Counted from the stretch's first letter, positions 2,472 to 39,789 are shown. The stretch is 43,667 nt of DNA from Candidatus Kaiserbacteria bacterium (GCA_019247335.1 JAFAPB010000075.1:1-43667); one strand, 5' to 3'. Numbers and translations are program-made. Notes: generated from the sequence alone by a model not told the origin.

Positions 2472-3248
2472 ATGATGAAGAAGACCGTCGCGCGGCTCGG
2501 ACAGCATTTTCTTATACATCGCTGGGCGGCGGCGAAGCTCGCACACGCAGCGATGCCAAAAGAAAATGAAACGATCGTCGAGATCGGTCCCGGCAAAGGC
2601 GTGCTCACGCGAGAATTACTCGCGCTCGGGAAGGTCATCGCGATCGAAAAAGATCCGTCGCTCGTTGCGTTCTTGCGCGATGCCTTTCAAGCCGAGATCG
2701 CTTCCGGACGACTCACGCTCATCGAAAGCGACGTGCGCGATGTTTCACCCGAGAAATTGCATCTTGAGCGATACGTCGTCGCTGCGAACATTCCGTATTA
2801 CATCACGGGTGAGATCATTCGCAGTTTTCTTGAGAGCGGTATGCCGCCGCGCGCGATGGCGCTTCTCGTGCAGAAAGAAGTCGCGCAGCGCATCGTAAGC
2901 GAAACGGAAAGCATCCTCTCCATTTCCGTCAAAGTGTACGGCACACCGAAACTGATCGCGAAAGTGTCGCGCACGCATTTTTCTCCGCCGCCCTCGGTCG
3001 ATTCCGCCATCCTGCTTATCGATTCTGTTTCGAAACGGTTCTTCAGCGATATCGCTGAAAAAGATTTCTTCACGCTGGTGCGTGCCGGATTCGCGTCGAA
3101 ACGCAAGACGATCTCCAATAACCTGGCGGCCGCATTCGGAAAAGAGCGCGCGCTCCGCGCGCTCGAGCGCGCCGGCATCGCCGCGAACGCGCGCGCGGAG
3201 ACGATCCATGCGGAGGGGTGGAAGGCGTTGGCGAAGGCGCTTGCTTGA
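2472..3248 (+). CDS. rsmA: 16S rRNA (adenine-N6)-dimethyltransferase RsmA/KsgA
   Basis: 258 aa with GQHFL, the SAM loop EIGPGKGVLT and NIPYYIT. The ATG abuts the helicase stop codon. Confidence 0.9.
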   Translation: MMKKTVARLGQHFLIHRWAAAKLAHAAMPKENETIVEIGPGKGVLTRELLALGKVIAIEKDPSLVAFLRDAFQAEIASGRLTLIESDVRDVSPEKLHLERYVVAANIPYYITGEIIRSFLESGMPPRAMALLVQKEVAQRIVSETESILSISVKVYGTPKLIAKVSRTHFSPPPSVDSAILLIDSVSKRFFSDIAEKDFFTLVRAGFASKRKTISNNLAAAFGKERALRALERAGIAANARAETIHAEGWKALAKALA

Positions 3249-3322: not shown

Positions 3323-3350
3323 AAAAACAGTGCGCAGGCACTGTTTTTTT
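3323..3350. terminator. Bidirectional intrinsic terminator between convergent rsmA and 3349-3666
   Basis: AAAAA-CAGTGC-GCAG-GCACTG-TTTTTTT: a perfect 6-bp stem flanked by an A-run and a T-run. Confidence 0.6.
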
Positions 3351-3666
3351 ACTGTGAGCTCCCCATCATCGTGATATTGATGCCAGGGTAGACGATGATC
3401 GGCACGATCGAGACCAGGCAGTAGTACGGCGCGCCGGCGAGCCCGAGAAGCCATTGGCCGGAATGCGAGGGCGGTCCGAAGCGGTACGTCTGCGTACCGG
3501 GCGTCCAGATGTAGTCGCCGCCGACCGGCGGTCCCACGCGCGCCCAGATCGCGTTGTTGTAGCAGAAAACGATCTGTCCTATCTGCCCGCCGAACGGAAA
3601 CGCGTACGCGGCGAGTGGAAAAAGAAACGAGATCACGGCGGCGGCGAGTGCGGCGCGCATCGACAT
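3349..3666 (-). CDS. Small exported protein, unknown function
   Basis: 105 aa. N-terminal signal-like MSMRAALAAAVISFLFPLAAYA, two Cys and a C-terminal hydrophobic stretch. Its start codon is back-to-back with the 3665 ORF. Confidence 0.5.
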   Translation of the reverse strand: MSMRAALAAAVISFLFPLAAYAFPFGGQIGQIVFCYNNAIWARVGPPVGGDYIWTPGTQTYRFGPPSHSGQWLLGLAGAPYYCLVSIVPIIVYPGINITMMGSSQ

Positions 3667-4588
3667 GAGCGTATTGTATCATTCAAGGATGCCGAACGAG
3701 GCGCCGCGGCGCGCAATACTTTCGCATCCGTTCGCGATCCTCTGCGCGATCGCGATCATGCTTTTCCTTATCGGCGGCACGATCGTGATGAGTCGCACGC
3801 CGCATGCGATAAACGGCGCATCCGACGCCTGGGGGAGCAACGCAACGACGCTCATCAATCCGACCTCCTTCTCACCGTATTACCGCGACAACTCCGCCGT
3901 TGCGCCGCCGCTGTTCGGCGCGACGACGACCGGCACGATCCATATCTTTCATCCGCCGGCACCGCAAACGACGGTGCCGGCGCAGTCGAGCGACATGGAT
4001 TTCGACAATTTCCTCGCGCAGCTCATGCGCCCGGCCGCCGCACAGACGACGAGCACGGTGAATATCGACTCAAAGAACGCGTATTCGTTCATTCCCCAAG
4101 GATTCGTCAGCACATCGACGCAGAAAAAGCGGACGGCCGCACAAGACGCGCTTTATGAGTATGGCAACGTCGCAGGAACGATCGTCCGCTCGTTTGAGGA
4201 CGCCCATCCGGACGAAGTGCAGATCCTCGCGGCACAGGCTGCCGATCGCGGCAATGCATTGAAATCGCTCGCGCTTGCGAGCCTCGGCGACGATCTGACC
4301 GCTGCCGGGGCGCAATTAGCGGTGCTTCCGCACGTGCCCGATCAGGCGCGCGCGGCCAACGGGAACCTTGCACGGGACTACCAGATGATCGGGCAGAAGC
4401 TCAAAGCGATCGCGCTCGCTAAGAATGACGGCGAATTTCTCGCCGCGATCACGAGCTACAACGCTTCCGCGGACGGATTCACGCGCGATTATATAGCGCT
4501 TGCGACGATTTTCGCGGTCGCGGGGGTGTCATTCGATAAAACCGAAGGCGGCGCGGCATTCATGTTCTCGAACACCGGAAGTTTCTAA
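3665..4588 (+). CDS. Membrane-anchored protein, first gene of the T4SS-like operon (unknown function)
   Basis: 307 aa with one N-terminal TM (FAILCAIAIMLFLIGGTIVM). Its C-terminal helical region resembles that of the next ORF. An alternative start exists at 3689. Confidence 0.6.
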   Translation: MSVLYHSRMPNEAPRRAILSHPFAILCAIAIMLFLIGGTIVMSRTPHAINGASDAWGSNATTLINPTSFSPYYRDNSAVAPPLFGATTTGTIHIFHPPAPQTTVPAQSSDMDFDNFLAQLMRPAAAQTTSTVNIDSKNAYSFIPQGFVSTSTQKKRTAAQDALYEYGNVAGTIVRSFEDAHPDEVQILAAQAADRGNALKSLALASLGDDLTAAGAQLAVLPHVPDQARAANGNLARDYQMIGQKLKAIALAKNDGEFLAAITSYNASADGFTRDYIALATIFAVAGVSFDKTEGGAAFMFSNTGSF

Positions 4589-4648
4589 AAAGGGGCGAAA
4601 AATCTGGGGGAAAGCCGAAAAACGCGTCCGGTCGCACGCTATACTTGT

Positions 4649-5458
4649 ATGGTGCGCGCATACCGACACATACCGCTCACTCCGCTTACGATCGCCGCGC
4701 TCGGATCGATCGCGCTCTTGCTGTGCGTTGCGACGTACCGCGCCTACGCGATGATTCGCCCGGCGCCGCTTACTACCGTTGCCGCATCGTCAACGAGCCC
4801 GGTCGCAGAAGATAACGCAAGCTGGGAACAGGAGAAGCTGCTGCTCGGGCTCTCGACGTCGAGCGATCCGACCGCGGGAGACGCGATCGACATCATCGCG
4901 CCGCAGGTTTTGGCGCAGCTCATCGGCGAATATGCGGGGCTCCAGCAGTCCGGTACGTATTCCTCATCGACCGCAGCGGCCGCCGCAGCACAGATCGCGG
5001 CGAATGTGCGCGCCAACGTCTCGTACGAACCGGTAAGCGCATCGCAGATCAAGACGGATGCCGATAGTTCGTACGCGCGCATGATGAAATATCGCGATGA
5101 CATGCGCGTCGCGCTCCAGCCGCTTCTGCAGAACGACCGTGCGGAGTACGAGATCTACGGCAATTACGTCGCGACCGGCGACAAGAGCTACCTGCGCGAA
5201 CTCCAGACGGTAGCCGATCGCTATCACGATGCGGGCACCGCCGCAGCAGCTGTCACCGTGCCGGCGGACATCGTCGGAACGCATGCGGAGATCGTGAACG
5301 CGCTCCTTCGGTTTTCATCGACGCTCAACGCGATGGCGACGCATGCGGATGATCCGATCGCATCTGTTGCGCTCTTGCGCACGTACAACGACGCCGAGTC
5401 CGACGTCCTCAACTCTTTCGACAAGCTCGCGACCTATGAGCGATTGAAAACGCCATGA
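4649..5458 (+). CDS. Membrane-anchored protein, apparent paralogue of 3665-4588
   Basis: 269 aa with an N-terminal TM (LTIAALGSIALLLCVATY). The C-terminal pattern ..VP...L....D....YN....F...LAT.. is shared with the preceding ORF. Confidence 0.6.
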   Translation: MVRAYRHIPLTPLTIAALGSIALLLCVATYRAYAMIRPAPLTTVAASSTSPVAEDNASWEQEKLLLGLSTSSDPTAGDAIDIIAPQVLAQLIGEYAGLQQSGTYSSSTAAAAAAQIAANVRANVSYEPVSASQIKTDADSSYARMMKYRDDMRVALQPLLQNDRAEYEIYGNYVATGDKSYLRELQTVADRYHDAGTAAAAVTVPADIVGTHAEIVNALLRFSSTLNAMATHADDPIASVALLRTYNDAESDVLNSFDKLATYERLKTP

Positions 5459-7110
5459 GATACTTGCCCGCATTCTTCGTCGCGCTTCTTACGTGCCTCG
5501 TGCCGCTCGTCGGCTATGCGCAGGCGACGAACACGTCCGGATTCCAGCGCGAAGGCATCTTCGGCTGCAATGCGGGGCAATACGGCGGATCGCCCGGTAC
5601 GACAGCGGCGATCGGCGGGATCTACGTGCCCGTTAATGATGCGGCGGTCACCCTCAATACGGGCATCCTCGTCTATAAGGAGTGCGTGCTGCGCGGCGTC
5701 GTCGACCGCATCCGCGAAAACGTCACCTCCGCGACGGTCAAGGGCGGCACCGTCGCGTTCCTGACCGGCCGCACGACCGTTGATGCCAACGGCAACACGA
5801 TCCAGCAGCCGCTCTTCCCGGTGAATTTGCGGCAGGATCAGCTCGCGGAGAGCGATCGCATCGTCGCGCTCGACCTTAAGAACGGAACCTTCAACTCGCT
5901 CAACCCCGCATTCAAAGACACCGTGACGCGCGCCGTGGCACGCGGCTATTACCTCTCGACGCGACAGCCGCAGAGCGGCTACGGATGCGCGTATACCGAC
6001 GATGCTGCCGCGCTCAAAGGCAATCCGCAATCGGTGTGGACCGCGCTCGACGCGCTACAGAATCCCGCGTGCAGCCAGTATTGGGCGTATCAAGCGGCCA
6101 ACTCGAATGTGATGAATGACGCGGCGGACGCGGTGAACACGATGCTGAACAAACTCGAGTGGGCAGGCGGGATCTACGACGTCGCATCGGTCGATCAGAA
6201 CGGCGACGTCATCACAAAAACGCCGGGGCGGTTCGTCGGATCAAACGAAGAGCAATTGCTGCAGTCCGGGTTCCAGCAGCAGCAGAGCGCGAACGACATC
6301 GATCAGATGGTCGGGGCGCTCTTCTCCGGCATGTCGTCGCAGATCATCCGCGACAACCAGGGCCTCTCCGGGCTCATGCAGCCGGTAGGCTCGCAGCCCT
6401 CGTACCTCGACCAGGTGGCAGCAGAGAGCTCCGCCGGACTCCGCACCGCAACGGCCAACGCCGCGCTCGCCGTCCTCGCCGCGTCGCGTACGGTCGAAAA
6501 GGCATACAATGATACGTGGCGCTCGATCCAAAGCCAGGTCACGACCTCGGTCAATTCGCTCAAGAGCGCCGAGAACCAGTGCTGGACGAACATCATTCAA
6601 AAGGTGTGCACGGGCGCACCGAACTCCAACGGCTCGTGTACCGCGCCGAGCGGCGAGAATCTCAAGGTCTCGACATCCACCGTGTACTCGCAATCCGCGA
6701 TCGCGGGGTCGACGGCGCTTTCGGTCTCTTCGCAGGTCACGCAGAATATCGCCGCTTCCGACAACGCGCTTCGACTGTTCGATCAGCTCATCGCAGCCGT
6801 CACGAATACGTCCTCAACCGACGCGCAGCTGCTCGCGATCAAACAAGTAGATTCGCTCGTCGCGCAGGGACTCCTGCATACGCAGAAAGATCTTGACCAA
6901 GCGACCGCTGCACAAAAGGCAGTGCAGCAAGGCGCATCGACCGTCGTTTCTGACACGGTGAAGGCATGGGCCGGCGGCGGATCGGACGGAAGCGCCGACA
7001 TTGCGTGGAACGGCGTCTACCCGCCGAAGGCGAGCCAGGATGTCGTCGGCTGGTGCAATGCAAATAACGCGACGACCCAGCAGGGCTGGATCGCGAAATG
7101 GAAGATATGA
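5455..7110 (+). CDS. Secreted Q/A/S/T-rich protein, unknown function
   Basis: 551 aa with signal peptide MRYLPAFFVALLTCLVPLVGYAQA. Overlaps the upstream stop by 4 nt. Confidence 0.65.
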   Translation: MRYLPAFFVALLTCLVPLVGYAQATNTSGFQREGIFGCNAGQYGGSPGTTAAIGGIYVPVNDAAVTLNTGILVYKECVLRGVVDRIRENVTSATVKGGTVAFLTGRTTVDANGNTIQQPLFPVNLRQDQLAESDRIVALDLKNGTFNSLNPAFKDTVTRAVARGYYLSTRQPQSGYGCAYTDDAAALKGNPQSVWTALDALQNPACSQYWAYQAANSNVMNDAADAVNTMLNKLEWAGGIYDVASVDQNGDVITKTPGRFVGSNEEQLLQSGFQQQQSANDIDQMVGALFSGMSSQIIRDNQGLSGLMQPVGSQPSYLDQVAAESSAGLRTATANAALAVLAASRTVEKAYNDTWRSIQSQVTTSVNSLKSAENQCWTNIIQKVCTGAPNSNGSCTAPSGENLKVSTSTVYSQSAIAGSTALSVSSQVTQNIAASDNALRLFDQLIAAVTNTSSTDAQLLAIKQVDSLVAQGLLHTQKDLDQATAAQKAVQQGASTVVSDTVKAWAGGGSDGSADIAWNGVYPPKASQDVVGWCNANNATTQQGWIAKWKI

Positions 7111-9752
7111 CGATGAGTAACGCACGCAATGCAATAGGTACACGCCTGATGACCGCGGCGCTCTTGCTTGCCGTGATGTTCACGTCGTTTATCGCTGCGC
7201 CGATCGCGGAAGCGTCGAGTGTCTCGGGCAGTGCGGGCGCAACGACCGGAGCAACAGGTGCCGGTACGACCGGCGTAGCAGGCGCCGCCGGGACGAACCC
7301 GCAGCCAAAAGTGGAATTTGTCTGCCAGCTCGGCGGCGTCATCAAAAGCACGGATTTGAGCGGCTGCTTGCCGCTCTTTGCGTCGTGGCTCGGCTCGTGG
7401 TTTCTCACAATTGGCGGCGCGTTCCTTCGTATCACTGGCTACTTCTTCGACGCGCTCACGTATCACATCATCATTGCCTTTGCCTCAACGCTCGATTATT
7501 TGAAGATCACCGATGCGATCAACACCGGGTGGACGGTCTTCCGCGATCTCTCCAACATGCTCATCATCGGCATGTTTGTCTTTATCGCGATCTCGATCAT
7601 TCTTGGTCTCAAGGAATACGGACAGAAGCGGCTTATCGCCAACGTGCTCATCGTCGCGGTCTTGATTAACTTCAGTCTTCTCTTTACGAAGCTCATCATC
7701 GACTTTTCGAACTTCACCTCCTATCAGGTCTACACGAAAATGACGACGAATCCCGGCGGGGGACAATCGAGCTTCGACATCGCGGGCAGCTTCCTCGCGC
7801 CGATGGGCATTACAAGCATCTGGGATTCGAGCGGCCTCGTCACCGACCAGGTGCTGCAATCGACGCAGAGCGGCCTGCAGGCATTCGCCTTCGGGCTCGT
7901 CGGCGGCATCATGCTTACCATGGTCGCGGCGGTGCTCGCGTACGGCTGCTTTTTGATCATCGCGCGCGGCATACTCCTCATCTTTTTAATGCTGACGGGG
8001 CCACTCGCATTCGCGACCTATCTCATACCGAATTTTGCGAAGAGCGAATACGGTTGGAATAACTGGTGGAAGACGCTGATCAACAGCGCCGCTTTCGCGC
8101 CGCTGCTTATGATCTTTCTTGCGATCTCGCTCGCGATCGTAAACGCCGCCGGGACGGCCGCGCAGCAGCAGACGAAGATCTCGATGGGCGCGATCATCGC
8201 GAACCCTGCGCAACAGCTCACGCAAAACAGCAGCGCGTGGGTCACCATCATGGTCTACATGATCGGCACGGGACTCCTTTTCGTCTCGTTGCGACTCGCG
8301 AGCAAATTCGCCGGCACGATCAGCGGCCTCGCGACGCCCTCGACGCTCGCGCAAGGCGCGCTGAAGGTCGCGGCGTTCGCGCCGATCGGCGTCGGCGGGC
8401 CACTGCTCGGAACGATGCTGCAGGCTTCACGCGGCACGCGTGCGCTCGGCCGACTTGAGACAGCAAAACAGGATTTGAGCGCATCGCGCCAGAAGATGGG
8501 CACGATGTACGGCGACTTACAGGCCACGAAGGCCACGCACGGCGAGCGCTCGCCGCAGTACCGAGCCGCGCTCAAGGATTACAACAAACAGGTGAAAGCC
8601 ACCGTCAAGCTCGCGAAGAAGGCGGACAAGGCCGAAGAGGTCGCCCGCAAGGATTACAACGTCGCGGATACGGCGCCCGCGAAAGCGGTAGCAAAAGCGG
8701 TCGGCGTGCCCGAGCCGTTCACCGGACAGACGCCGAAAAAAGCGACCGGCGGCGTCCTCGGAAAGGTCGAGCGGCAAGCGAAAGAGGCGGAAAAGATCAC
8801 CAAGCGTCTCGAGCCGACCGCCGGCGACGAACAGGCGATCCAGGAAAAGCACCGACGCGAAGCGGAACGGCGCCACGAAGGGGAGCGCACCGCACTCAAC
8901 GAGCAGCTGCGCATCGCGCGCGCGACCCAAGACGGCATCAGGAAGCAGGCAGCGACCGACAAAGCGCGCCTCACGCAAGAGCAGGAACAGGCGAAGAAGG
9001 ATCGCGAGTCGCGCGCGGCCGAAGTCGACAAGATCGTGAAGGGCATTCAGCCGCGACATGAAGCCGCCGTCAAAGAAAAGGAAACGATCACCAAAGAAGT
9101 GCAGACGAATACCAAGGAGATAAACGAGCGCGCGAACAATCAGCAGGTCGAACTCGACCGCAAGATCGCGATCGAGACCAACCCAGCAGAGATCACGAAG
9201 CTCAAAGCGGAGAAGGAGACCGTCGAAGTGAAGCGCGGCGCGGAGCTCCGCACCGAGCAAGCGAAGATCCAGCGCGTCACCGCACAGGTCGAGCAGATCG
9301 AATCCGAGATCAAGCAAGCGCGCCAGCCGATCACGGATCTCGACGCGAAGATCGCACAAGCGAATACGCAGATCGAGAATCTCGACACGCAGGTCGCCAA
9401 CGCCGATCGCGATGTCAGACAAAAAGAGAACGCGCTCAAGCAGCTCGATCAGCAGATCCGTACGGAGGCGAAGGAAGCGGGCGACCGCGAGATCAACGCC
9501 ATGCATGCAGGTCTCGTCGACGCGGCGGCCGAAGCAGGTCGGCAGGTCGCCGAAAATCCGGCCGACCGGCCGTTCGTCGTCGACGAGGTCCGCAGCGCGT
9601 TCAAGAAGCGCACGAGCGCCGAAGGTCGCATGAAGCGATTCTTCCAGGATATGAATAAAGAGATCGGCACCGGAGAGCCGCCGCAGACGCCGTCATCGCC
9701 GATCTCGCCCACGCCGCCTCCGACACCGCCGTCGCCGCCACCCGCCCACTGA
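7098..9752 (+). CDS. Polytopic TrbL/VirB6-like membrane protein fused to a long charged coiled-coil and a Pro-rich tail
   Basis: 884 aa. Signal/TM, Gly-Thr-Ala tract, at least 6 hydrophobic helices (residues ~90-440), then ~400 aa rich in K/E/Q/A/R and a terminal PPQTPSSPISPTPPPTPPSPPPAH. The family call rests on topology and context, not on a search. Confidence 0.6.
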   Translation: MEDMTMSNARNAIGTRLMTAALLLAVMFTSFIAAPIAEASSVSGSAGATTGATGAGTTGVAGAAGTNPQPKVEFVCQLGGVIKSTDLSGCLPLFASWLGSWFLTIGGAFLRITGYFFDALTYHIIIAFASTLDYLKITDAINTGWTVFRDLSNMLIIGMFVFIAISIILGLKEYGQKRLIANVLIVAVLINFSLLFTKLIIDFSNFTSYQVYTKMTTNPGGGQSSFDIAGSFLAPMGITSIWDSSGLVTDQVLQSTQSGLQAFAFGLVGGIMLTMVAAVLAYGCFLIIARGILLIFLMLTGPLAFATYLIPNFAKSEYGWNNWWKTLINSAAFAPLLMIFLAISLAIVNAAGTAAQQQTKISMGAIIANPAQQLTQNSSAWVTIMVYMIGTGLLFVSLRLASKFAGTISGLATPSTLAQGALKVAAFAPIGVGGPLLGTMLQASRGTRALGRLETAKQDLSASRQKMGTMYGDLQATKATHGERSPQYRAALKDYNKQVKATVKLAKKADKAEEVARKDYNVADTAPAKAVAKAVGVPEPFTGQTPKKATGGVLGKVERQAKEAEKITKRLEPTAGDEQAIQEKHRREAERRHEGERTALNEQLRIARATQDGIRKQAATDKARLTQEQEQAKKDRESRAAEVDKIVKGIQPRHEAAVKEKETITKEVQTNTKEINERANNQQVELDRKIAIETNPAEITKLKAEKETVEVKRGAELRTEQAKIQRVTAQVEQIESEIKQARQPITDLDAKIAQANTQIENLDTQVANADRDVRQKENALKQLDQQIRTEAKEAGDREINAMHAGLVDAAAEAGRQVAENPADRPFVVDEVRSAFKKRTSAEGRMKRFFQDMNKEIGTGEPPQTPSSPISPTPPPTPPSPPPAH

Positions 9753-9753
9753 T

Positions 9754-10332
9754 ATGGATGACACGCAACTCGATCAAAAACTAAGTGAGCGATTCAAGTC
9801 GCTCCCGAAGATCGTGCAGGACGCGATCACGTCGGCGAGCGTCGAGCAACACCTGCGCGCGCTCGCCGAGACCCACAAGCTCCACATCGATCAGTGGGCG
9901 CTTCTTGAGAATGAGGTAATGCTGACTTTGCTCGGCTTCCAGAAGACGGAAGATCTTGCGGGCAACATCGCAAAGGAAGTGGGTATCGATGCGGAGGCTG
10001 CACGTGCGCTGGCAGATGACATCTCAAAGGTCGTTTTTGAACCAATCAGAGGCGAATTGGATCGCCGGCTCGATGCTCCCACGCAAAATCCGCTGCCTGG
10101 AGAGCCGATAGCGGAAACGCCTCATGAAGCCGCGCCGACCGCTCCTTCAGCGCCGATCGCGCCGTCGGCTCCGCAACTGGCGGCAACGCCCGTCGTCCCG
10201 GCGACTCCACCGTCGCCCGCACCCGAAAAAAAGGTTGAGCGCGCCCCAGTTTCACAGAATTATGCCGCGTCCATGCCGAGCCATGAGCGTACCGCGATAG
10301 AAGGAGACCCGTACCGCGAACAAATTGCATAA
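9754..10332 (+). CDS. Hypothetical protein with Pro/Ala-rich C-terminal half
   Basis: 192 aa, 1-nt spacer from the upstream gene, protein-like composition. Confidence 0.6.
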   Translation: MDDTQLDQKLSERFKSLPKIVQDAITSASVEQHLRALAETHKLHIDQWALLENEVMLTLLGFQKTEDLAGNIAKEVGIDAEAARALADDISKVVFEPIRGELDRRLDAPTQNPLPGEPIAETPHEAAPTAPSAPIAPSAPQLAATPVVPATPPSPAPEKKVERAPVSQNYAASMPSHERTAIEGDPYREQIA

Positions 10333-10372
10333 CAAACGCGGGCATCGCGCATCGCTTGATATACTGAAAGCG

Positions 10373-10870
10373 ATGCAGTTCCAGGTACCGCAGTTTATCG
10401 AAGTGGAAGACAAGATCTTCGGCCCCTTCACGTTTAAACAGTTCGTCTTCCTCGCCGGCGGCGCGGGCACCGCATATCTCCTGTGGCGCGCGCTGCCGCT
10501 TTTGGTCGCTGCACCGCTTATCGCGATCATCGCCGGAATGACGGTGGCACTGGCTTTCGTGCAGTACAACGGCCGCCCTTTCCTCCTCGCCGCGGAAACG
10601 GCGTTCTACTACCTCCTCCATAGCAAGCTCTACCTCTGGAACAACGTTCCCAAGAAAGTCGCGCCGAAAAAGGCCGCCGAGCAGCCGACCGCACAGGTAT
10701 ACATTCCGCATCTTTCTGATTCCCGCTTGCACGACCTCGCTTGGTCGCTCGACATCAAAGAACGTATCGCCGCGGGCGTCTCCTCCGAAGAAGACCGGGA
10801 AGCGCGCTCCGTGGTCGCGATACGCACGCCCGAGGAAATAATCGCCCACATGCAGGGCCGACACGCCTGA
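10373..10870 (+). CDS. PrgI-family (VirB3-like) T4SS membrane protein
   Basis: Begins MQFQVPQFIEVEDKIFGPFTFKQFVFLAGG followed by two TM helices, which is the hallmark N-terminus of PrgI-family proteins. The ATG at 10373 is preferred over the TTG at 10325. Confidence 0.6.
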   Translation: MQFQVPQFIEVEDKIFGPFTFKQFVFLAGGAGTAYLLWRALPLLVAAPLIAIIAGMTVALAFVQYNGRPFLLAAETAFYYLLHSKLYLWNNVPKKVAPKKAAEQPTAQVYIPHLSDSRLHDLAWSLDIKERIAAGVSSEEDREARSVVAIRTPEEIIAHMQGRHA

Positions 10871-10871
10871 T

Positions 10872-11537
10872 ATGCCGGAAACCACAGCCAATCCGCGCGC
10901 CAATACCCGCTCGACGCAGGAGTTCGTTCCCGTCGCTGAAGTGCGCGACGGCATCATCGTGATGAAGGACACGAGCCTGCGCGCTGTCCTCCTTGCGTCC
11001 TCTCTGAACTTCGCGCTCAAGTCGGAGGACGAGCAGACCGCGTTCATCGTGCAGTTCCAGAACTTTCTCAACTCGCTCGATTTTTCCGTGCAGATCTTCG
11101 TGCAGTCGCGCATGCTCGACATCCGTCCGTACGTCGCGACGCTCGAGGCGGCGTATAAAGAGCAGCTCGACGATCTCATGCGCGTGCAGATCCGGGAATA
11201 CATCGAATTCATCCGTAGCTTCACCGAGGCGGCGAACATCATGACGAAAAACTTTTTCGTCGTCGTGCCGTACACCCCGCCCGCGCTCACCAAAACCGGC
11301 GGCGCGCTCTCGCTCCTGTCGCTCGGCAAAGGCAGTGGCAGCGCGGATGAAGCGAACAAGACCTTTGAAGAACAGGTGACGCAGCTCGAGCAGCGCATCG
11401 CGATCGTGCAGCAAGGTCTCGTGCGCACCGGCGTGCGCACCGTGCAGCTCGGCACGGAAGAGGCGATCGAGCTTCTCTATAAGATGTTCAATCCGGGGGA
11501 AGAGGGGAAACCCATGCCCTTAAACGCACAACAATAG
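10872..11537 (+). CDS. T4SS-associated protein resembling the N-terminal domain of VirB4/TrsE-type ATPases
   Basis: 221 aa. The motif pattern VPVAEVRDGIIVMKDTSLRAVLLASSLNFALKSEDEQ..F..FLNSL...QI is typical of VirB4 N-termini from memory. No Walker motifs. 1-nt spacers on both sides. Confidence 0.4.
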   Translation: MPETTANPRANTRSTQEFVPVAEVRDGIIVMKDTSLRAVLLASSLNFALKSEDEQTAFIVQFQNFLNSLDFSVQIFVQSRMLDIRPYVATLEAAYKEQLDDLMRVQIREYIEFIRSFTEAANIMTKNFFVVVPYTPPALTKTGGALSLLSLGKGSGSADEANKTFEEQVTQLEQRIAIVQQGLVRTGVRTVQLGTEEAIELLYKMFNPGEEGKPMPLNAQQ

Positions 11538-11538
11538 T

Positions 11539-13476
11539 ATGGCGCTCACCGACCTGCTCCCGTTCGGCAAGAAAAAAACGGAGTCGCCCGAGGTCTTGCC
11601 GGTTTTGCCCGATGAGATCTACCGCACCGGCGTACTCGACCTGCAGGATGTCATCGCGCCGCACGCGCTCAAGATCACTTCGCACGAGCTCGACCTCGGC
11701 GAGAAGATCGCGCGCACGTTCTTCGTGATCTCATATCCGCGCTTTTTGACGACCGGCTGGTTCGCGCCGATCATCAACATGGACAAGGTGATCGATATCT
11801 CGATCTTCGTGCACCCGATGGACACCAACGAGATGCTGCGCAAGTTCCAGAAAAAGGTGGCGGAGATCCAGAGCCAGATCGCCTCGCGCGAGGAGAAAGG
11901 CATGGTGCGCGACCCGATGCTCGACACCGCCTACGGCGACCTCGAACAGCTGCGCGACAACCTCCAGCAGGCGCAGGAGAGAATTTTCGACGTGGGTCTC
12001 TATCTCACGCTCTACGGCGCGACGCGCGAAGAGATCGACAAGGTGGAAAGCGAGGTGCGCTCGATCCTCGAATCGCGCCTCGTCTATATCCGGCCGGCGC
12101 TCTTCCAGCAGGAGCAGGGCTTCCGCTCGGTCCTCCCGCTCGCGACAGACGAGCTCGGCGTACATACCAAGCTCAACTCCGCGCCGCTCTCCTCGATCTT
12201 TCCGTTCATCTCGTTCGACCTTACCTCGGATCGCGGCATTCTCTACGGCATCAACCGCCACAACTCTTCGCTCATTCTCTTCGATCGCTTCTCGCTCGAG
12301 AACTACAACAGCGTGACCTTCGCTAAATCCGGCGCCGGCAAATCCTACACGACCAAATTAGAGATCCTGCGCTCGCTTATGTTCGACACCGAGGTGATCG
12401 TGATCGACCCCGAACGCGAGTATGAATATCTCGCCGAGACGGTGGGCGGACGCTATTTCAATATCAGCCTCTCCTCCGAGCACCACATCAATCCGTTCGA
12501 TCTTCCGATCCCGCGCGAGGATGAGAATCCGTCGGACGTGCTCCGCAACAACATCATCACGCTCGTCGGCCTCTTCCGCATCATGCTCGGCGGACTCACG
12601 CCCGAGGAAGACGCGATCATCGACAAGGCGATCACCGAAACGTACGCGCTCAAAGACATCACGGCCGATGCGAACTTCGCCGCGGTCGAGCCGCCGCTGC
12701 TTTCCGACTTCGAGCTCGTGCTCTCCGGCATGGAAGGCTCCGAGAGCCTCGTGCAACGTCTTTCGAAATACACCAAGGGTACGTGGTCCGGCTTTATGAA
12801 TCGCCCGACCAACGTCGACATGAACAAAAAGCTCGTCGTCTTTTCCGTGCGCGACATGGAAGACGATCTGAAGCCGGTCGCGATGTACATCATCACGCAC
12901 CACATCTGGAATGTCGTGCGAAAAGAGCTCCGCAAGCGCCTCCTCGTCATCGACGAGGCATGGTGGATGATGAAGGCGCAGGACACCGCCTCCTTCCTCT
13001 TCGGCATCGCGAAGCGCGGCCGTAAATACTATCTCGGGCTCTCGACGATCACGCAGGACGTGAATGACTTTTTGACATCGCCGTACGGCACGGCGATGAT
13101 CACCAACTCGTCGATCCAGATGCTCCTGCGCCAATCGCCGACGTCCGTCGACTTGGTGCAGCAGACGTTCAAGCTCTCCGACGAAGAAAAATATCTGCTC
13201 CTCGAATCAGACGTCGGGGAAGGTATCTTCTTCGCGGGACTCAAGCACGTCGCGATAAAAGTGATCGCTTCCTACACGGAGGACCAGATCATCACATCCG
13301 ACCCCTCACAGATCCTCGCGATCAAAAAAGCGAAGCAAGAACTCGAAGCGGCGAACGAAGTGCCGACTCCGTTGCCGGAGCCGTCGCCCGCCGCGGCGGC
13401 GCCTGCCGCACCTGCCGCGCCTGCACCGGCGGCTGCCGCAATGAATCAACCCGAGCCGCCCGTGCCGAATATATGA
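11539..13476 (+). CDS. virB4: VirB4/TrbE/CagE-family T4SS ATPase
   Basis: 645 aa with Walker A FAKSGAGKSYTTK, Walker B RLLVIDEAWWMM and a C-terminal Ala/Pro-rich tail. Confidence 0.85.
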   Translation: MALTDLLPFGKKKTESPEVLPVLPDEIYRTGVLDLQDVIAPHALKITSHELDLGEKIARTFFVISYPRFLTTGWFAPIINMDKVIDISIFVHPMDTNEMLRKFQKKVAEIQSQIASREEKGMVRDPMLDTAYGDLEQLRDNLQQAQERIFDVGLYLTLYGATREEIDKVESEVRSILESRLVYIRPALFQQEQGFRSVLPLATDELGVHTKLNSAPLSSIFPFISFDLTSDRGILYGINRHNSSLILFDRFSLENYNSVTFAKSGAGKSYTTKLEILRSLMFDTEVIVIDPEREYEYLAETVGGRYFNISLSSEHHINPFDLPIPREDENPSDVLRNNIITLVGLFRIMLGGLTPEEDAIIDKAITETYALKDITADANFAAVEPPLLSDFELVLSGMEGSESLVQRLSKYTKGTWSGFMNRPTNVDMNKKLVVFSVRDMEDDLKPVAMYIITHHIWNVVRKELRKRLLVIDEAWWMMKAQDTASFLFGIAKRGRKYYLGLSTITQDVNDFLTSPYGTAMITNSSIQMLLRQSPTSVDLVQQTFKLSDEEKYLLLESDVGEGIFFAGLKHVAIKVIASYTEDQIITSDPSQILAIKKAKQELEAANEVPTPLPEPSPAAAAPAAPAAPAPAAAAMNQPEPPVPNI

Positions 13477-14516
13477 GACGTATCGCTTTGATCGCGCCGC
13501 TCGCGATACTCTTCTTCGCGGCGCCCGCTTTCGCACAACTCTCGCTCCCCGGCGGTGGGAACTCGCTCACGATCGGGATCGACCCTGTCGCACCGCGCCC
13601 CGGCGATCGAGTCGCGCTCTCACTTTCCACGTCTCTGTACGATCTGGATGCAAGCACGATCACCTGGCAGGTCAATGGCACGACGATCGCATCCGGTGTG
13701 GGCGTAAAAAATGCGTCATTTAGGGCCGGCGCCCTCGGATCCGCTGACGATATCAGCGTCGAGCTGGTCGACGGCGATGCGGTCGCCTCCGCCGAAACGC
13801 GTCTCACGCCCGCATCCGTCGATCTCTTGTGGGAATCCGATTCGTACGTGCCGCCGTTCTATCGCGGCCGCGCCTTGCCCACACCCGGTACGAGCATCCG
13901 ACTCTTCGCTATCCCATATCTCACAAAAACCGGCCGCACGTACGCCGCAGATCAGCTCATCTATACCTGGAAGGTGAACGGTGCGGTCGTCTCCTCGCTC
14001 TCCGGTCGCGGCAAAGCGAGCGCTCGCATTCCCGCGCCCGATCTTTTTGATCAAAAAACAGTGACGGTCGATGTCGCCTCACCCGATAAGAGCGTGGCGG
14101 CGAGCGCGAGCGTCACGATCTCGACCGGCGACCCTCTTGTGCGGCTCTATGAAGATCATCCGCTCTTCGGCGTAGAGTATTTCCGTGCGTTGCCGCCGAA
14201 TTTTTTCCTGAATGAGAGCGAAATGACCTTCATCGCGATACCGTATTTCGCAAAAGCTCAGCGGGGAAACAGCGCAAATCTTACGCACGAATGGCGCGTG
14301 AACGGCACGCCCGTCGCCGCTGCCGGCGACCGTACCGATGAGATCACCTTGAGCGCGGGAAACACCGGCGGGCTCGCGCACCTCGAGCTCTCGGTCGGCG
14401 ACCGCACGAACATCCTTTCGCAGGCCGCCGGTACCTGGGACATCACCTTCACGAAATCCGGCGGCGCGCCCGGCGCGACGTCGGGCGGCGCTTCGAGCCC
14501 GTTCGGCGACCATTGA
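13473..14516 (+). CDS. Secreted protein with three W-x-VNG beta-rich repeats
   Basis: 347 aa with signal peptide MRRIALIAPLAILFFAAPAFAQ and repeats ITWQVNGT / YTWKVNGA / HEWRVNGT. 4-nt overlap with virB4. Confidence 0.65.
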   Translation: MRRIALIAPLAILFFAAPAFAQLSLPGGGNSLTIGIDPVAPRPGDRVALSLSTSLYDLDASTITWQVNGTTIASGVGVKNASFRAGALGSADDISVELVDGDAVASAETRLTPASVDLLWESDSYVPPFYRGRALPTPGTSIRLFAIPYLTKTGRTYAADQLIYTWKVNGAVVSSLSGRGKASARIPAPDLFDQKTVTVDVASPDKSVAASASVTISTGDPLVRLYEDHPLFGVEYFRALPPNFFLNESEMTFIAIPYFAKAQRGNSANLTHEWRVNGTPVAAAGDRTDEITLSAGNTGGLAHLELSVGDRTNILSQAAGTWDITFTKSGGAPGATSGGASSPFGDH

Positions 14517-14517
14517 T

Positions 14518-15732
14518 ATGAATAATTTCTCGAGCGCAATTAAATTCTTCCTGGCGGCTGCGATCGTCATTATTCTCGGCGCGCTCCTCGGCTGGTACAC
14601 CTTCATTCATCGGCAGATCGCCGCGACGGATGCGGAGAGCAATGCGCGCGGCACTACTATTCCGACGTTCGGCGGGCAGACCGGCAGCATCAATGCGAAC
14701 ATAAGCGGCACCGCGGACACGGGAGAAGCGCCGCCCGGCAAAGCAGCGCCGCGCCTCTGGCATGTGACCAAAAACCCTGTCGCGGGCGACGGATTTGCAT
14801 CCGCGACCTCGACGATCTATTTCGCAGAACTTTCGAGCGGGAACGTGCTGATCGGCGATCCCTCCACGAGCGCCGTCGTGCGGCTCTCGAATACCCTGAT
14901 GCCCAAATCGTACGAAGCGCGCTTCGCGCCCGACGGATCCGTGATCCTGCGCTCGGTGGGCGAGAGCGGCGCCGTGCAGACCTACGCTGCACGGCTCGCC
15001 ACGTCGACCGAATCGGTCGATTCGACATCGACGCCGATGATGTTGAAGGGTTTGTATCTGCCGCAAGATATCCTCGAGATCACGACGGTCCCTGCTCTCA
15101 AGCTTTTGTATTTGATATCCGATAATGTGGGCGGGGCATCGCTGATCCAGTCCGATTGGTCGGGCGCGACGCAGAAGAAGCTCTTCTCATCACCGCTGCT
15201 TGAATGGCAGCTGCAGGTCTCTCCCGAGAACACCATCGTCCTCACGCAAAAGGCGGCCGACAATCTGCCCGGCTCCGCATATGCGCTCTCGGGTTCGACG
15301 CTCCGTCCGCTTGTCGAGAACGTGCCGGGACTCATCCTCCGCATCGGCAAAGGAGGCGCCATGCTCTACAGCTCGTCGAACGGCGCGCCTGATCTATACG
15401 CACAAGCGTCCGCGAGCGCGGCGCCGGTGCATCTGCCGATCCGCACCTCGGCCGATAAGTGCGTCTTTGCCGCCTCCGGGCTCACCGCGTACTGCGCCGT
15501 GCCGACGGCGAATCCGGGCGGTTACCTTTCGGCGCGCTTTCAGGGGACAGTGCATACGTCGGATTCCTGGTATCGCATCGATATGTCCGCCGGGACCGCG
15601 GAGAAATTCTTTACGCCTGACCCCTCGATCGCGCTCGACGTTGAGAATCCGCAGATCGATGCGAACGGGCTCTATCTCGCATTTCAAAACGGGGCGGATC
15701 GATCGCTCTGGATGCTCCGTATCATGCAATAG
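14518..15732 (+). CDS. Membrane-anchored extracytoplasmic protein, unknown function
   Basis: 404 aa with an N-terminal TM (FFLAAAIVIILGALLGWYTFI), then a beta-rich domain. Confidence 0.65.
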   Translation: MNNFSSAIKFFLAAAIVIILGALLGWYTFIHRQIAATDAESNARGTTIPTFGGQTGSINANISGTADTGEAPPGKAAPRLWHVTKNPVAGDGFASATSTIYFAELSSGNVLIGDPSTSAVVRLSNTLMPKSYEARFAPDGSVILRSVGESGAVQTYAARLATSTESVDSTSTPMMLKGLYLPQDILEITTVPALKLLYLISDNVGGASLIQSDWSGATQKKLFSSPLLEWQLQVSPENTIVLTQKAADNLPGSAYALSGSTLRPLVENVPGLILRIGKGGAMLYSSSNGAPDLYAQASASAAPVHLPIRTSADKCVFAASGLTAYCAVPTANPGGYLSARFQGTVHTSDSWYRIDMSAGTAEKFFTPDPSIALDVENPQIDANGLYLAFQNGADRSLWMLRIMQ

Positions 15733-15733
15733 T

Positions 15734-16300
15734 ATGTCTATGCGCGTACGAACACCGGTCGTTTCTCTCTGCCTTCTTGTTGTCATGTTGTTTCTCTTTG
15801 CCGGCGTCGCTCATGCCTCCGGCGCGGGTACCGGATGCACCAATCAATTCTGTCCGCTCGCGAATGTGAGCAATTCGCGACTCCAGGATATTTATTCCGG
15901 CACCGACCTCGCGAACTTCATCAGCAAGCTCTTCACCTTCGCGATATCGATCGGCGCGATCCTCGCGGTCCTGCGTCTCGGCTGGGCAGGGTACCTCTAC
16001 ATGACAACTGATAGCTGGGGATCAAAAGGGAAGGCGAAAGAGGTGATTGGCGACGTCGTCCTCGGCCTTCTCCTCCTCCTAAGCATCTGGATCATCCTCA
16101 AGCAGATCAATCCTGACATCTTGAAGCTCAACATTTTGAACCAAATTCAAAAAGTCGACGTGAGCAAGCAGGTCCCTGCCAATACCTCCGGCGCAGGCAC
16201 GGGGACAGGCGCCGGAACGGGCAGCGCAACGGGAACCGGCGGCGCGACAGGGACAGCGATGCCGTGCACTGATGCGCTCGGCAATGTGATTCCGTGCTAA
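15734..16300 (+). CDS. T4SS pilin-like protein (TrbC/VirB2-type topology)
   Basis: 188 aa from the ATG at 15734, in frame with the longer track ORF. Signal peptide, two hydrophobic helices (FISKLFTFAISIGAILAVL; VVLGLLLLLSIWIIL) and a C-terminal GAGTGTGAGTGSATGTGGATGT tract. Confidence 0.55.
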   Translation: MSMRVRTPVVSLCLLVVMLFLFAGVAHASGAGTGCTNQFCPLANVSNSRLQDIYSGTDLANFISKLFTFAISIGAILAVLRLGWAGYLYMTTDSWGSKGKAKEVIGDVVLGLLLLLSIWIILKQINPDILKLNILNQIQKVDVSKQVPANTSGAGTGTGAGTGSATGTGGATGTAMPCTDALGNVIPC

Positions 16301-16303
16301 CGG

Positions 16304-16768
16304 CTATTGCGCCGAGTATTTGATGACGACGCGGCGGCCGCGGCCTTCGCCTTGAGACTCCGTTTTAATATTCGGCTGATCCTGCAATGTCGTGTGGACG
16401 ATGAGTCGCTCGTACGCTGACATCGGCGTGAGCTCGACGTCGTATTGGAATGACCGCGCTCGCTCGGCCATCATGAGCGCTTTATTCTGGATATCCTTGA
16501 TGCGTTTCACCTGGTAGTCGTTCACGTCCACGAGAAAGCGCGGCTCCTCCTCGCCCTCTGCGGCGGGATGCTTCTTTTCGTAGATCTTCTTCACGAGCAT
16601 GTCGAGCGCGTAGATCGTATCGCCCCGTCCGCCGATCAGGATCGGCGCGGCCTCGGTCTGTATTGAAAAAATATGCTGGCCTGCCATTTCACTGTGGGAG
16701 ACGTCGGAGTAGGGGACGCCGAGGTTGTCGAGCAACTCCTTGACGATGGTCGTAACGGCAGCTTCCAT
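16304..16768 (-). CDS. jag: KH/R3H RNA-binding protein Jag/KhpB (short form)
   Basis: 154 aa with KH-like LIGGRGDTIYALD and R3H-like MSAYERLIVHTTL, in the conserved position downstream of yidC. Confidence 0.75.
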   Translation of the reverse strand: MEAAVTTIVKELLDNLGVPYSDVSHSEMAGQHIFSIQTEAAPILIGGRGDTIYALDMLVKKIYEKKHPAAEGEEEPRFLVDVNDYQVKRIKDIQNKALMMAERARSFQYDVELTPMSAYERLIVHTTLQDQPNIKTESQGEGRGRRVVIKYSAQ

Positions 16769-16811: not shown

Positions 16812-17549
16812 TTATTTTTCCGGATTGAAGCGCCTGCCGGCGAGGTATTCCTGGCCGATCATGAATAAGTTGCTCGTCGCCCAGTAGAGCGGTGCCGCCG
16901 CCGCGACCGTGTAGCCGATAAAGCCGACGATAAGAGGAAGCACGTACCGCGCCTGGAGATCAAAGCTCTTCGCCATTTCCGACGAGAACGACTGCTCCAC
17001 CGCTTCAATGGGCGTCTGCGACCCGCGCGGACCCATCGAGAGACGCGTATACGTCAGCTGGGCGAGCATCGCGATGAGCGCGAGCACGACCGAATGTCCC
17101 GCCATATTGATGAGGCCCAAAAATTCCATGTTGACGACCGGCGGCGCCGCGACGAATGTGTAGAGGTATTCCGTATGGACGACGGGGAAGCCGCCGCGCG
17201 CAAAGACCCAATAGAGCCCGAGGAGAATCGGTAACTGCACTAAAAGAAGCAGAAATCCGGCGAACGGGTGGATGTCGCGTTCGCGGTAGAGCGCGAGGAT
17301 CGCCTTGCTTTGCTCCTCGGGCTTATCCTTATATTTCTTCTTGATCTCTTCGATCTCGGGCGCGACGCGCTTCATGTCCATCTGCGCCTTGACCGCTCGC
17401 TTCGAGAGCGGCCAGAGAATGATGCGTACGATGAAGGTGACGATGATGACCGCGATACCGATATCGTGCGTCGGGATATGATCGACAAAAAAGACGAGCG
17501 CGTTGTAGATCGGCAGGTAAATGATCGCGTGGAAAGCGTGACCGATCAT
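16812..17549 (-). CDS. yidC: Membrane protein insertase YidC (short type)
   Basis: 245 aa, multi-TM, in rnpA-yidC-jag synteny. Confidence 0.85.
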   Translation of the reverse strand: MIGHAFHAIIYLPIYNALVFFVDHIPTHDIGIAVIIVTFIVRIILWPLSKRAVKAQMDMKRVAPEIEEIKKKYKDKPEEQSKAILALYRERDIHPFAGFLLLLVQLPILLGLYWVFARGGFPVVHTEYLYTFVAAPPVVNMEFLGLINMAGHSVVLALIAMLAQLTYTRLSMGPRGSQTPIEAVEQSFSSEMAKSFDLQARYVLPLIVGFIGYTVAAAAPLYWATSNLFMIGQEYLAGRRFNPEK

Positions 17550-17583: not shown

Positions 17584-17901
17584 TCAAGCGGCTGCCCGCT
17601 TCATGAGCTGGGCGATCTCCGCGCGTATTTCGTCATTCGACGCTTTCGTCGATCCCGCTTTCGCGTAGATAACGTACGCGCCGGCGGGAAGCGCCGGAAG
17701 AAGCGGCAGGAGCGCCGCACGGACGCGGCGCTTCAGCTTCGTACGGTCGACCGCATGACGCGCGACCTTTTTAGATATGACGCAGGCGAGTGCGGCACGC
17801 GAAAACCGCGAGACCCCTATGGAAAAAAGCTGACCGTGCGTCTTTTGAGCGGGGGAGAGCGTTTTCAGCTCGCCGCTTGAGAGTCGATATCGTGCAGGCA
17901 T
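17584..17901 (-). CDS. rnpA: RNase P protein component
   Basis: 105 aa, basic, immediately downstream of rpmH. Confidence 0.8.
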   Translation of the reverse strand: MPARYRLSSGELKTLSPAQKTHGQLFSIGVSRFSRAALACVISKKVARHAVDRTKLKRRVRAALLPLLPALPAGAYVIYAKAGSTKASNDEIRAEIAQLMKRAAA

Positions 17902-17910
17902 GAACCTCCT

Positions 17911-18045
17911 TTACGCGGAGAGTCGCGCGCGGCCCTTTCGGCGGCGCCTTGTGAGCATTTTGCGGCCGCCGCGCGTCTTTGTTCGCACGATAAAACCGTG
18001 CGTCTTCGCGCGCTTCTTCTTTTTGGGCTGATACGTTCGTCGCAT
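17911..18045 (-). CDS. rpmH: 50S ribosomal protein L34
   Basis: 44 aa: [44 protein letters not shown]. The track ORF is trimmed to the internal ATG. TGGTATAGT lies 7 nt upstream of that ATG. Confidence 0.9.
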
Positions 18046-18212
18046 AAGCGGCACTATACCAGTGTTTCGGTATTTTGAAAGGCCGAAATGAGCGAGAAAA
18101 CGTATCCCCACGTTCTCCACAGCTTATAAACAGCGCGGGGAAATGAAGTTTGCGCTTCCCACAACGCCCGATGCGCGTATAATGACCAAGCTTTGATGCG
18201 CATGATGATTCT
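18046..18212. promoter_or_regulatory. rpmH-dnaA divergent promoter region with DnaA-box-like sites
   Basis: TTCTCCACA (18113-18121) matches 8/9 of TTATCCACA. TATAAT sits at 18178-18183 upstream of dnaA. Confidence 0.4.
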
Positions 18213-37207: not shown

Positions 37208-37924
37208 TCAAGCTTTCGGTCGTTTCAGCACGAGTGACCTCCACCTTAAGGAAAATCGCGCGGTCGCGCGCCTTGCGCGGAGGCCGAGTGCGAATTTGTA
37301 CGCCGGTCCGCAATAAAATCCCCAGGCGAGCGCGAAAAGGTATTCCTGCACGGGAATGTTGAATAGGTAAGAATCGCTTCGTATAAAATCGTGCATCACG
37401 CTCGGGTAGAGCGGTAAGAGCCAACCGCGATACGCAACAAAGACGATCGCGAGGGTGAGCAATGCAGAACTCACGGCATTCGCCCAGAGTTCCGGTCGCA
37501 CAATGAGATGCAGCGTTCCAAGCACAAGCAGCAGCACTGCGCCGTACATAATACTGTTAGCATGGAATGCGAGCGTGCCGATGAAAAAGGCCGCGAACCC
37601 GGCAGCGAGCAGCGCGGCCCATATAAATAGATGACGCGCAGTCCGTTCAGTGCCGCGATTACGCAAGAACGCATCGTGGATCACGCTGGCAAGTCCGCCG
37701 AGGAAGAAGCAGTACATAACGTCTTCGAATCCAAATCCGCGAAAGATCGGGAGGGCGTATTCAGGCGCGAAATAGTCGCGTGCAATGATCGGCTCAAGTA
37801 TCGAAAAAAGCGTCAAGATCAGCGATGTGACAAGAAGTTCCCGACGCACGTCGGCGCGAAAAACGAAAATCAGCATCCAGAGGACGGCAAAGAAGAGATC
37901 CAACGTGAGGTAGGCGTATTCCAT
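37208..37924 (-). CDS. Polytopic membrane protein resembling lycopene-cyclase-domain (CrtYc/Yd-type) proteins
   Basis: 238 aa from MEYAYLTLDLFF. About 7 TM helices in two halves, each with an acidic motif (GFEDVMY; PVQEYLF). Its ATG overlaps the pilB stop (ATGA). The family call is from memory. Confidence 0.5.
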   Translation of the reverse strand: MEYAYLTLDLFFAVLWMLIFVFRADVRRELLVTSLILTLFSILEPIIARDYFAPEYALPIFRGFGFEDVMYCFFLGGLASVIHDAFLRNRGTERTARHLFIWAALLAAGFAAFFIGTLAFHANSIMYGAVLLLVLGTLHLIVRPELWANAVSSALLTLAIVFVAYRGWLLPLYPSVMHDFIRSDSYLFNIPVQEYLFALAWGFYCGPAYKFALGLRARRATARFSLRWRSLVLKRPKA

Positions 37925-39621: not shown

Positions 39622-39789
39622 CTATCCAGTGTACCGCACCTTTCCGCTCCGGAGCGGTGCTACACTTTCATAATGGTACGAGAAAGCTGGCGACCTGGCG
39701 CAGATCGTGAACGCATACAGCGCAATGCTCCGAATGAAGGAGCGGGTAGTGGTGGTAGCGCGACGGACGCAGGGATAGATCAGAACCGC

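Follow-up and report, generated by a model that had tools for sequence, protein, structure and literature searches.

Patescibacteria, which rely on host cells, constitute a substantial part of bacterial diversity. To our knowledge, their type IV secretion system (T4SS) is the only T4SS known to be essential for the growth of its owner. In Southlakia epibionticum, transposon sequencing showed epibiotic growth to require the T4SS and pilin genes; a lack of coupling and relaxase proteins was noted as well, and the locus (SEML1_0004–0019) adjoins the replication origin (Wang et al. 2023, PMC10633639). A survey of 3,035 Patescibacteria genomes placed their VirB4 proteins in a monophyletic clade nested in MPF-FATA, with TrsD as the commonest partner, PrgI/VirB3, VirB6 and VirB2-like pilins also present, and relaxases almost absent (Quinonero-Coronel et al. 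2025, PMC12102498). The same survey found VirD4 homologues in 2,918 genomes (that is, in most Patescibacteria), mostly far from virB4, and located the Paceibacteria cluster near dnaA, dnaN, rnpA, ksgA and rpmH. These systems are treated as pilus-forming monoderm T4SSs in a 2025 review, which also describes an ‘extended VirB6’ class (PMC12857230), and tubular structures at a host interface, possibly T4SS pili, are reported in a 2026 preprint. Here we analyse a cluster of T4SS-like genes beside the replication origin of a Candidatus Kaiserbacteria genome (GCA_019247335.1, JAFAPB010000075.1). The window is the whole contig of 43,667 bp, with a GC content of about 59%.

The locus is an intact and ordinary member of the chromosomal, relaxase-less, origin-proximal T4SS of Patescibacteria, a system published between 2023 and 2025. 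The initial annotation of this DNA, which took the cluster for a domesticated chromosomal apparatus, was correct in its interpretation, and that interpretation was already in print (PMC12102498; PMC10633639). The locus therefore adds no new kind of system. It is a clean Kaiserbacteria example in which constraint can be quantified, VirB4 being conserved above DnaA throughout a class, and in which accessory genes left grey in published surveys receive fold or family assignments. The cluster very probably encodes a monoderm, MPF-FATA-derived chromosomal T4SS that does not move a mobile element, and its job is most likely contact-dependent exchange with a host cell. The genes of the operon (O1 to O11), all of which are intact, are as follows.

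O1, 3665–4588, plus strand: predicted bitopic membrane protein, paralogue of O2.
O2, 4649–5458, plus strand: predicted bitopic membrane protein of no known family.
O3, 5455–7110, plus strand: large, predicted secreted, Cys-containing protein.
O4, 7098–9752, plus strand: probable extended VirB6-like polytopic protein.
O5, 9754–10332, plus strand: predicted cytoplasmic protein with a C-terminal DPYRE peptide.
O6, 10325–10870, plus strand: PrgI/VirB3-like membrane protein.
O7, 10872–11537, plus strand: TrsD-like protein, the VirB4 N-terminal domain as an ORF (open reading frame) of its own.
O8, 11539–13476, plus strand: VirB4 ATPase of the MPF-FATA type.
O9, 13473–14516, plus strand: predicted secreted protein with three tandem immunoglobulin (Ig)-like domains.
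O10, 14518–15732, plus strand: predicted membrane-anchored TolB-like beta-propeller.
O11, 15734–16300, plus strand: VirB2/TrbC-type pilin, short form.

O8 matches the CD1110 family (NCBIfam NF045971) at 360.7 bits against a curated cut-off of 325 (E = 1.5e-107) and the Pfam P-loop_TraG family (PF19044, E = 1.1e-24), with further matches to Mbov_0397, TraC and VirB4_CagE; its Walker A and Walker B motifs read AKSGAGKS and LLVIDE. PrgI/VirB3 (O6) and the TrsD-like protein (O7) are encoded directly upstream. O6 matches PF12666 (PrgI) at 41.8 bits (E = 1.6e-10; cut-off, 27), and our reading of the sequence (MQFQVPQFIEVEDKI) places its likely true start at the ATG at 10373. The alignment of O8 is restricted to positions 185–733 of the CD1110 model, as its N-terminal domain is absent, and O7 aligns to positions 5–117 of the same NCBIfam model, with matches to VirB4_plasma (1.3e-9) and TrsD (9.5e-6). 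Because O7 and O8 cover complementary parts of the model, we assign them as a VirB4 split into a TrsD-like ORF and an ATPase, as in pGO1. On account of this complementarity we rejected the alternative of a duplicated N-domain (O7) preceding a full-length VirB4.

We compared the window with 80 loci, one genome per species, with a VirB4 identity of 74–94%, and established gene order by tblastn of all window genes. These loci carry the labels Kaiser-, Nomura-, Taylor-, Campbell- and Adlerbacteria. Over 8,000 relatives of VirB4 are in the database, and the 120 best are 85–94% identical; those of the 120 that carry a name are all from Kaiserbacteria, Paceibacterota or Patescibacteria. O7 was found in 78 of the 80 loci, at 48–84% identity. 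Judged by sequence, O8 belongs to the Patescibacteria clade of VirB4 within the MPF-FATA lineage, because it scores above the CD1110 cut-off and both the 120 best protein matches and all 80 loci are from Kaiserbacteria, Paceibacterota or Parcubacteria.

The best curated matches of this VirB4 are conjugation families (CD1110 of CTn2, Mbov_0397 of a Mycoplasma integrative and conjugative element (ICE), and TraC), and the TrsD–TrsE split is known from staphylococcal conjugative plasmids. Both observations are what one would see if the cluster were an ICE, or an ICE's transfer module in decay, that by chance lies near the origin. The same housekeeping flanks across 80 species argue against this. 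The order uvrD–rsmA–operon–jag–yidC–dnaA–dnaN–PBP1 is found almost everywhere in the 80 loci. Among relatives with enough sequence, dnaA lies downstream of virB4 in 58 out of 61 and yidC in 59 out of 61, and rsmA lies upstream in 47 out of 54; synteny beside dnaA, which the initial annotation had proposed to examine in relatives, is thus kept. VirB4 is conserved above DnaA in all of the loci compared (60/60). Its median identity to the window is 89% for near relatives and 77% for far ones, and that of the TrsD-like protein is 78% and 60%; the corresponding values are 84% and 55% for DnaA, 65% and 39% for DnaN, and 60% and 40% for YidC. The kept order and the conservation of VirB4 above DnaA indicate that the operon is vertically inherited under very strong purifying selection, the opposite of what is expected of an ICE.

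Composition and gene content point the same way. The GC content of the operon (0.59–0.62) matches that of the rest of the window (0.54–0.61), and every ORF is intact. We found no relaxase, coupling protein (VirD4, the type IV coupling protein (T4CP)), integrase or tRNA in the 43.7-kb contig and no att-like repeats, the direct repeats around the cluster being only short and imperfect; nor were there mobility genes among the extra ORFs sampled in relatives. The reading as an ICE, whole or decaying, is therefore extremely improbable, and we reject it on the shared flanks, the conservation of VirB4 above DnaA, the native GC content and the lack of mobility genes on the contig. The same results bear out the initial annotation where it reported a chromosome-like GC content, listed relaxase, VirD4-type coupling protein, integrase and att repeats as missing from the window, and argued for a domesticated apparatus over a conjugative element. 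Its broader phrase, ‘without any DNA-processing genes’, holds for this contig and has this contig as its scope.

We return to the domesticated T4SS and its channel and pilus components. O4 has a signal or transmembrane segment, five further transmembrane segments (transmembrane scan), a charged coiled-coil region of about 480 amino acids and a Pro-rich tail. The window protein has no Pfam TrbL/VirB6 match; PF04610 (TrbL/VirB6) is matched by 6 of 40 O4 orthologues, at best with 6e-5. The tail gave coiled-coil-type matches only, and comparison of the O4 profile with Protein Data Bank (PDB) sequences gave nothing meaningful, only coiled-coil or calmodulin-like noise. We consider O4 to be probably an extended VirB6, a class that it fits because six hydrophobic segments are followed by a long hydrophilic coiled-coil tail (PMC12857230). 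O11 matches the T4SS pilin family PF18895 (2.7e-7; 31 bits, cut-off 26.6) and has a signal peptide, two transmembrane helices and a Gly/Thr-rich tail that ends in Cys. Its orthologues in relatives are often 380–580 amino acids long with extra domains, so that the window pilin is a short form: an S8 subtilase domain is fused to the pilin orthologue in locus L038 (13293–15035), and a VanY domain occurs in the ORF at the pilin position in locus L078 (12870–14111). Tracts rich in Gly, Thr and Ala are encoded in two places, behind the O4 signal peptide (7213–7300) and at the C terminus of the pilin (16175–16260).

Four components had been named in the initial annotation. Its VirB4 with Walker A and B motifs at 11539–13476, its PrgI/VirB3-like protein and its VirB2/TrbC-like pilin are all confirmed by the above-threshold profile matches given here, and its TrbL/VirB6-like polytopic protein stands by topology and by the orthologues that match PF04610, not by a TrbL match of O4 itself. 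The tight packing that it described is also real, and the eight junctions that it quoted (5455/5458, 7098/7110, 9752/9754, 10870/10872, 11537/11539, 13473/13476, 14516/14518 and 15732/15734) are exact. It had counted twelve plus-strand ORFs between 3665 and 16300; there are 11, and the twelfth gene (3349–3666) is on the minus strand. The remaining eight ORFs, which it described as exported or membrane-anchored proteins without a family, include two to which this does not apply: O7, as a cytoplasmic homologue of TrsD and the VirB4 N-domain, and O5, which has neither a transmembrane segment nor a signal peptide.

Pfam and NCBIfam gave only sub-threshold chance matches for O1, O2, O3, O5, O9, O10 and the small minus-strand gene. 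O1, O2 and O3 were compared by profile–profile alignment (hhalign), and O9 and O10 by AlphaFold models. O2 has a transmembrane segment at residues 10–28 and aligns with a bitopic family of about 295 amino acids that takes its place in distant loci (probability 99.9%, E = 5e-34); neither O2 nor the profile of its distant family found a meaningful match among PDB sequences. O1 has an N-terminal transmembrane segment at 23–41 and a helical ectodomain, and alignment of N termini indicates that its true start is probably at 3689. It aligns with O2 over the C-terminal 140 amino acids (probability 96%, E = 2.6e-9) and with the distant O2 family (E = 2.2e-15), on which basis we assign it as a Kaiserbacteria-specific paralogue of O2. 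By BLAST, O1 to O3 are detectable only in roughly the 20 closest genomes. O3, which has a signal-like segment at 4–22, nevertheless aligns with a large secreted family at the same position in distant loci (probability 100%, E = 1.1e-55). No Pfam match was found for O3, and no PDB match for O3 or its distant family. The family member in locus L064 (3444–5894) has an F5/8 type C (discoidin-type) galactose-binding domain (2.7e-12), and O3 is a candidate surface or adhesin subunit.

O9 is predicted with high confidence (pLDDT, AlphaFold's per-residue confidence score, 90.4) to have three Ig-like domains in tandem behind a signal peptide. Foldseek retrieves Ig arrays at 1e-8, the O9 profile matches the Ig domains of phage Hoc (2.6e-5), and the gene was found in 76 of the 80 loci. 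The model of O10 (pLDDT 89.2) has a long N-terminal membrane helix at 3–43, a disordered linker and a beta-propeller; Foldseek retrieves propellers, TolB among them, and the profile matches TolB (5.3e-5). O5 combines a helical N-domain of about 105 amino acids, a disordered Pro-rich linker and a C-terminal DPYRE peptide that is invariant in the alignment. A full HMMER search recovered at least 9,041 representatives of its family (E ≤ 1e-3; clusters at 50% identity). A DPYRE-like tail ends 121 of the 150 best family members, and many members have two or three tandem N-domains and are 300–450 amino acids long (proteins P0241–P0390). O5 has no Pfam model and no PDB match by profile, and a search of the searchable literature turned up no use of the DPYRE motif in this context. 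Beyond published work, we thus add the predicted triple-Ig protein O9, the predicted anchored TolB-like propeller O10, the DPYRE-tailed O5 and the class-wide assignment of the O2 and O3 families.

The surface subunits appear to be modular across Paceibacteria, as is partially supported by the S8 subtilase and VanY domains on pilin orthologues and the lectin domain on the O3 family. Such lectin-type and enzyme domains, the conserved pilin and the predicted surface exposure of most accessory proteins (the large O3, O9 with its Ig array and the propeller O10) would all suit an organelle for adhesion or attachment only, in which a VirB2-type pilus and surface adhesins transport nothing. We think this very unlikely, as the retention of the probable VirB6 channel and the extreme conservation of VirB4 and TrsD suggest more than pilus assembly, and as type IV pili already serve Patescibacteria for adhesion, with a PilB ATPase encoded in the window. 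The T4SS reading, with exchange through the apparatus, is the one we carry forward.

The class-wide core of the operon comprises ten genes, O2 to O11: O2, O3, the probable extended VirB6, the DPYRE protein, PrgI, TrsD, VirB4, the triple-Ig protein, the propeller and the pilin. The last genes follow the order Ig–propeller–pilin in the Kaiserbacteria group (21 loci) and Ig–pilin–propeller in other Paceibacteria (32 loci), as seen by comparing loci L001–L024 with L025–L080. Many distant loci have an extra ORF of 160–290 amino acids right after virB4, which has no Pfam match except for a weak one to PT-TG in locus L028. For five families of the core, sequence comparison gives no relative in Pfam, NCBIfam or the PDB. 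It is conceivable, and we suggest it only tentatively, that the fixed core defines a distinct Paceibacteria subtype of T4SS in which five orphan families replace VirB8, VirB1 and coupling functions, and in which the DPYRE protein docks on VirB4/TrsD as a substrate adaptor or as a substrate.

The proposed machine would work as follows. VirB4 (O8), the TrsD-like N-domain (O7) and PrgI/VirB3 (O6) would form a membrane-associated motor that docks at the membrane through O6 and the extended VirB6 channel protein (O4). VirB4 would most likely draw O11, the VirB2-type pilin, out of the membrane and polymerise it into a pilus-like conduit. Another six or seven conserved proteins, among them O2 (with its paralogue O1), O3, O9 and O10, are probably the wall-spanning or surface part, and the cytoplasmic O5 is probably an adaptor at the ATPase, acting through its tethered DPYRE peptide. 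The apparatus would thereby serve contact-dependent exchange with the host cell on which the bacterium depends. We infer this host-interaction function by analogy with S. epibionticum, in which epibiotic growth requires the homologous genes. A requirement for host-dependent growth is known only in that species, and for the genome studied here the conservation of VirB4 above DnaA would suggest it.

Several points weigh against this interpretation. The S. epibionticum locus has both a lysozyme-like protein (SEML1_0006, with three lysozyme-like domains) and an NTF2/VirB8-like protein (SEML1_0012); neither a VirB1 peptidoglycan hydrolase nor an NTF2-type VirB8 was recognised in the window. The VirB6 identity of the window's own O4 comes only from its orthologues and topology. 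A search for RNA sequencing data gave only two DNA runs, from a rock metagenome and a root metagenome, and the sequence is contained only in DNA runs of a rock metagenome.

The substrate could be nucleic acid: the apparatus might import host DNA or RNA in the manner of ComB or Ced, or transfer chromosomal DNA with the help of a coupling ATPase encoded elsewhere. Patescibacteria are without nucleotide synthesis, and the VirD4 homologues of the 2,918 surveyed genomes, mostly distant from virB4 (PMC12102498), could supply the coupling function. A 2026 preprint ties VirB4 to feeding on host RNA by phylogenetic co-occurrence, and proteins of the operon have weak matches to the archaeal DNA importers CedB and CedD. 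However, these matches are to the P-loop region only and fall far below the cut-offs (CedB, 30.3 bits against 700; CedD, 12.1 against 600). Moreover, competence in S. epibionticum needs ComEC, deletion of comEC leaves the cells viable and the T4SS is still essential, the unlinked T4CP of that species is not essential, and the operon has no component recognisable as a nuclease, a relaxase or a DNA-binding protein. We regard nucleic-acid transport as improbable and retain contact-dependent host-cell exchange, by a T4SS that does not move a mobile element, as the preferred reading.

The operon is flanked by the genes listed below, in agreement with the flanks (rsmA and jag–yidC–rnpA–rpmH/dnaA) given in the initial annotation, with dnaN in addition.

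rsmA/ksgA, 2472–3248, plus strand: PF00398 (5e-49), upstream flank.
Small secreted protein gene, 3349–3666, minus strand: no known family, divergent from the operon.
jag, 16304–16768, minus strand: Pfam R3H.
yidC, 16812–17549, minus strand: Pfam 60KD_IMP.
rnpA, 17584–17901, minus strand: Pfam Ribonuclease_P.
rpmH, within 17911–18120, minus strand: Pfam Ribosomal_L34.
dnaA, 18213–19562, plus strand: Pfam Bac_DnaA (2.1e-64).
dnaN, 19778–20875, plus strand: marks the origin region together with dnaA.

The end of the operon is 1.9 kb away from dnaA. At this end, only 3 nt (16300–16304) separate the stop codon of jag on the minus strand from that of the plus-strand pilin gene, so that no terminator could fit between the genes. 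A promoter scan of the 5′ and 3′ ends of the operon found no sigma-70-like sites.

At the other end, the small minus-strand gene encodes a protein of 103–105 amino acids (called as 103, with its start at 3660) that has a signal peptide and a C-terminal hydrophobic segment. Seventeen Kaiserbacteria loci have it in the same place, with 52–72% identity (median, 67%), and it is better conserved than most accessory T4SS genes. Its relatives form at least 201 clusters, all ‘hypothetical’ and without a Pfam domain, and the protein itself has no Pfam or NCBIfam match. The longest ORFs of this gene and O1 share the CATG at 3664–3667; with the probable starts at 3660 and 3689, the spacer between them is 28 nt. 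A similarly tight divergent arrangement is present in relatives (for example, 22 nt in locus L003). With so short a divergent spacer, the promoters would lie inside coding sequence or the transcripts would be leaderless. Between the convergent rsmA and small gene, a perfect hairpin (CAGTGC-GCAG-GCACTG, 3323–3350) has an A-run and a T-run on its sides and looks like a bidirectional terminator. The hairpin was read directly from the sequence; a consensus scan did not list it.

The remainder of the contig is housekeeping in character, with genes for UvrD/PcrA helicase, PBP1A, RuvC, YebC, RuvB and PilB, among others. Three ORFs, of 810 (24486–26918, minus strand), 380 (27983–29125, plus strand) and 1142 amino acids (39271–42699, plus strand), have no Pfam or NCBIfam family. 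The 1142-amino-acid protein has only a sub-threshold T2SSF-like stretch and its gene adjoins that of the lone PilB ATPase (37924–39621), which itself adjoins a gene for a membrane protein resembling a lycopene cyclase domain (37208–38197).

Compared with known systems, the locus has some likeness to the Mycoplasma ICE. VirB4 matches Mbov_0397 (1.9e-75), and the best match of O7 is the N-terminal part of that model (1.3e-9), both below the curated cut-offs; the resemblance of the pilin O11 to the pilin-like family Mbov_0395 (E = 0.014) is too weak for a finding. Unlike the genes described here, those of Mycoplasma are part of a mobile element that has a DDE transposase of its own. With the MPF-FATA conjugative T4SSs of monoderms, the locus shares the VirB4 family, above the cut-off set for CD1110 of the Clostridioides element CTn2, and a VirB4 N-domain encoded as a separate TrsD protein, as in the TrsC–TrsD–TrsE genes of pGO1/pSK41. 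It also shares PrgI/VirB3, a probable VirB6 analogue and the lack of an outer-membrane core with MPF-FATA systems, including PrgH–PrgI–PrgJ of pCF10. It differs from the conjugative systems in that no relaxase, T4CP, VirB1 hydrolase or VirB8-like protein is seen on this contig, in that it has a VirB2-type pilin, which is generally absent from Gram-positive systems, and in that it is chromosomally fixed and, by all indications, vertically inherited.

The nearest likeness is to the Patescibacteria systems themselves. S. epibionticum has a six-gene pilin array, whereas the window has one short pilin. The DPYRE protein, the anchored propeller and the O2 and O3 families, class-wide here, are not named in the published descriptions as far as these can be searched. 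In common with the systems of S. epibionticum and the wider survey (PMC12102498), the locus is chromosomal and origin-proximal with no relaxase nearby, and it has the Patescibacteria gene order PrgI–TrsD–VirB4 and a VirB2-like pilin, together with a probable VirB6-like protein. Downstream of VirB4, an exported protein with Ig-like character is encoded in both S. epibionticum (SEML1_0005) and the window (O9), and the neighbouring genes dnaA, dnaN, rnpA, ksgA and rpmH are those of other Paceibacteria systems.

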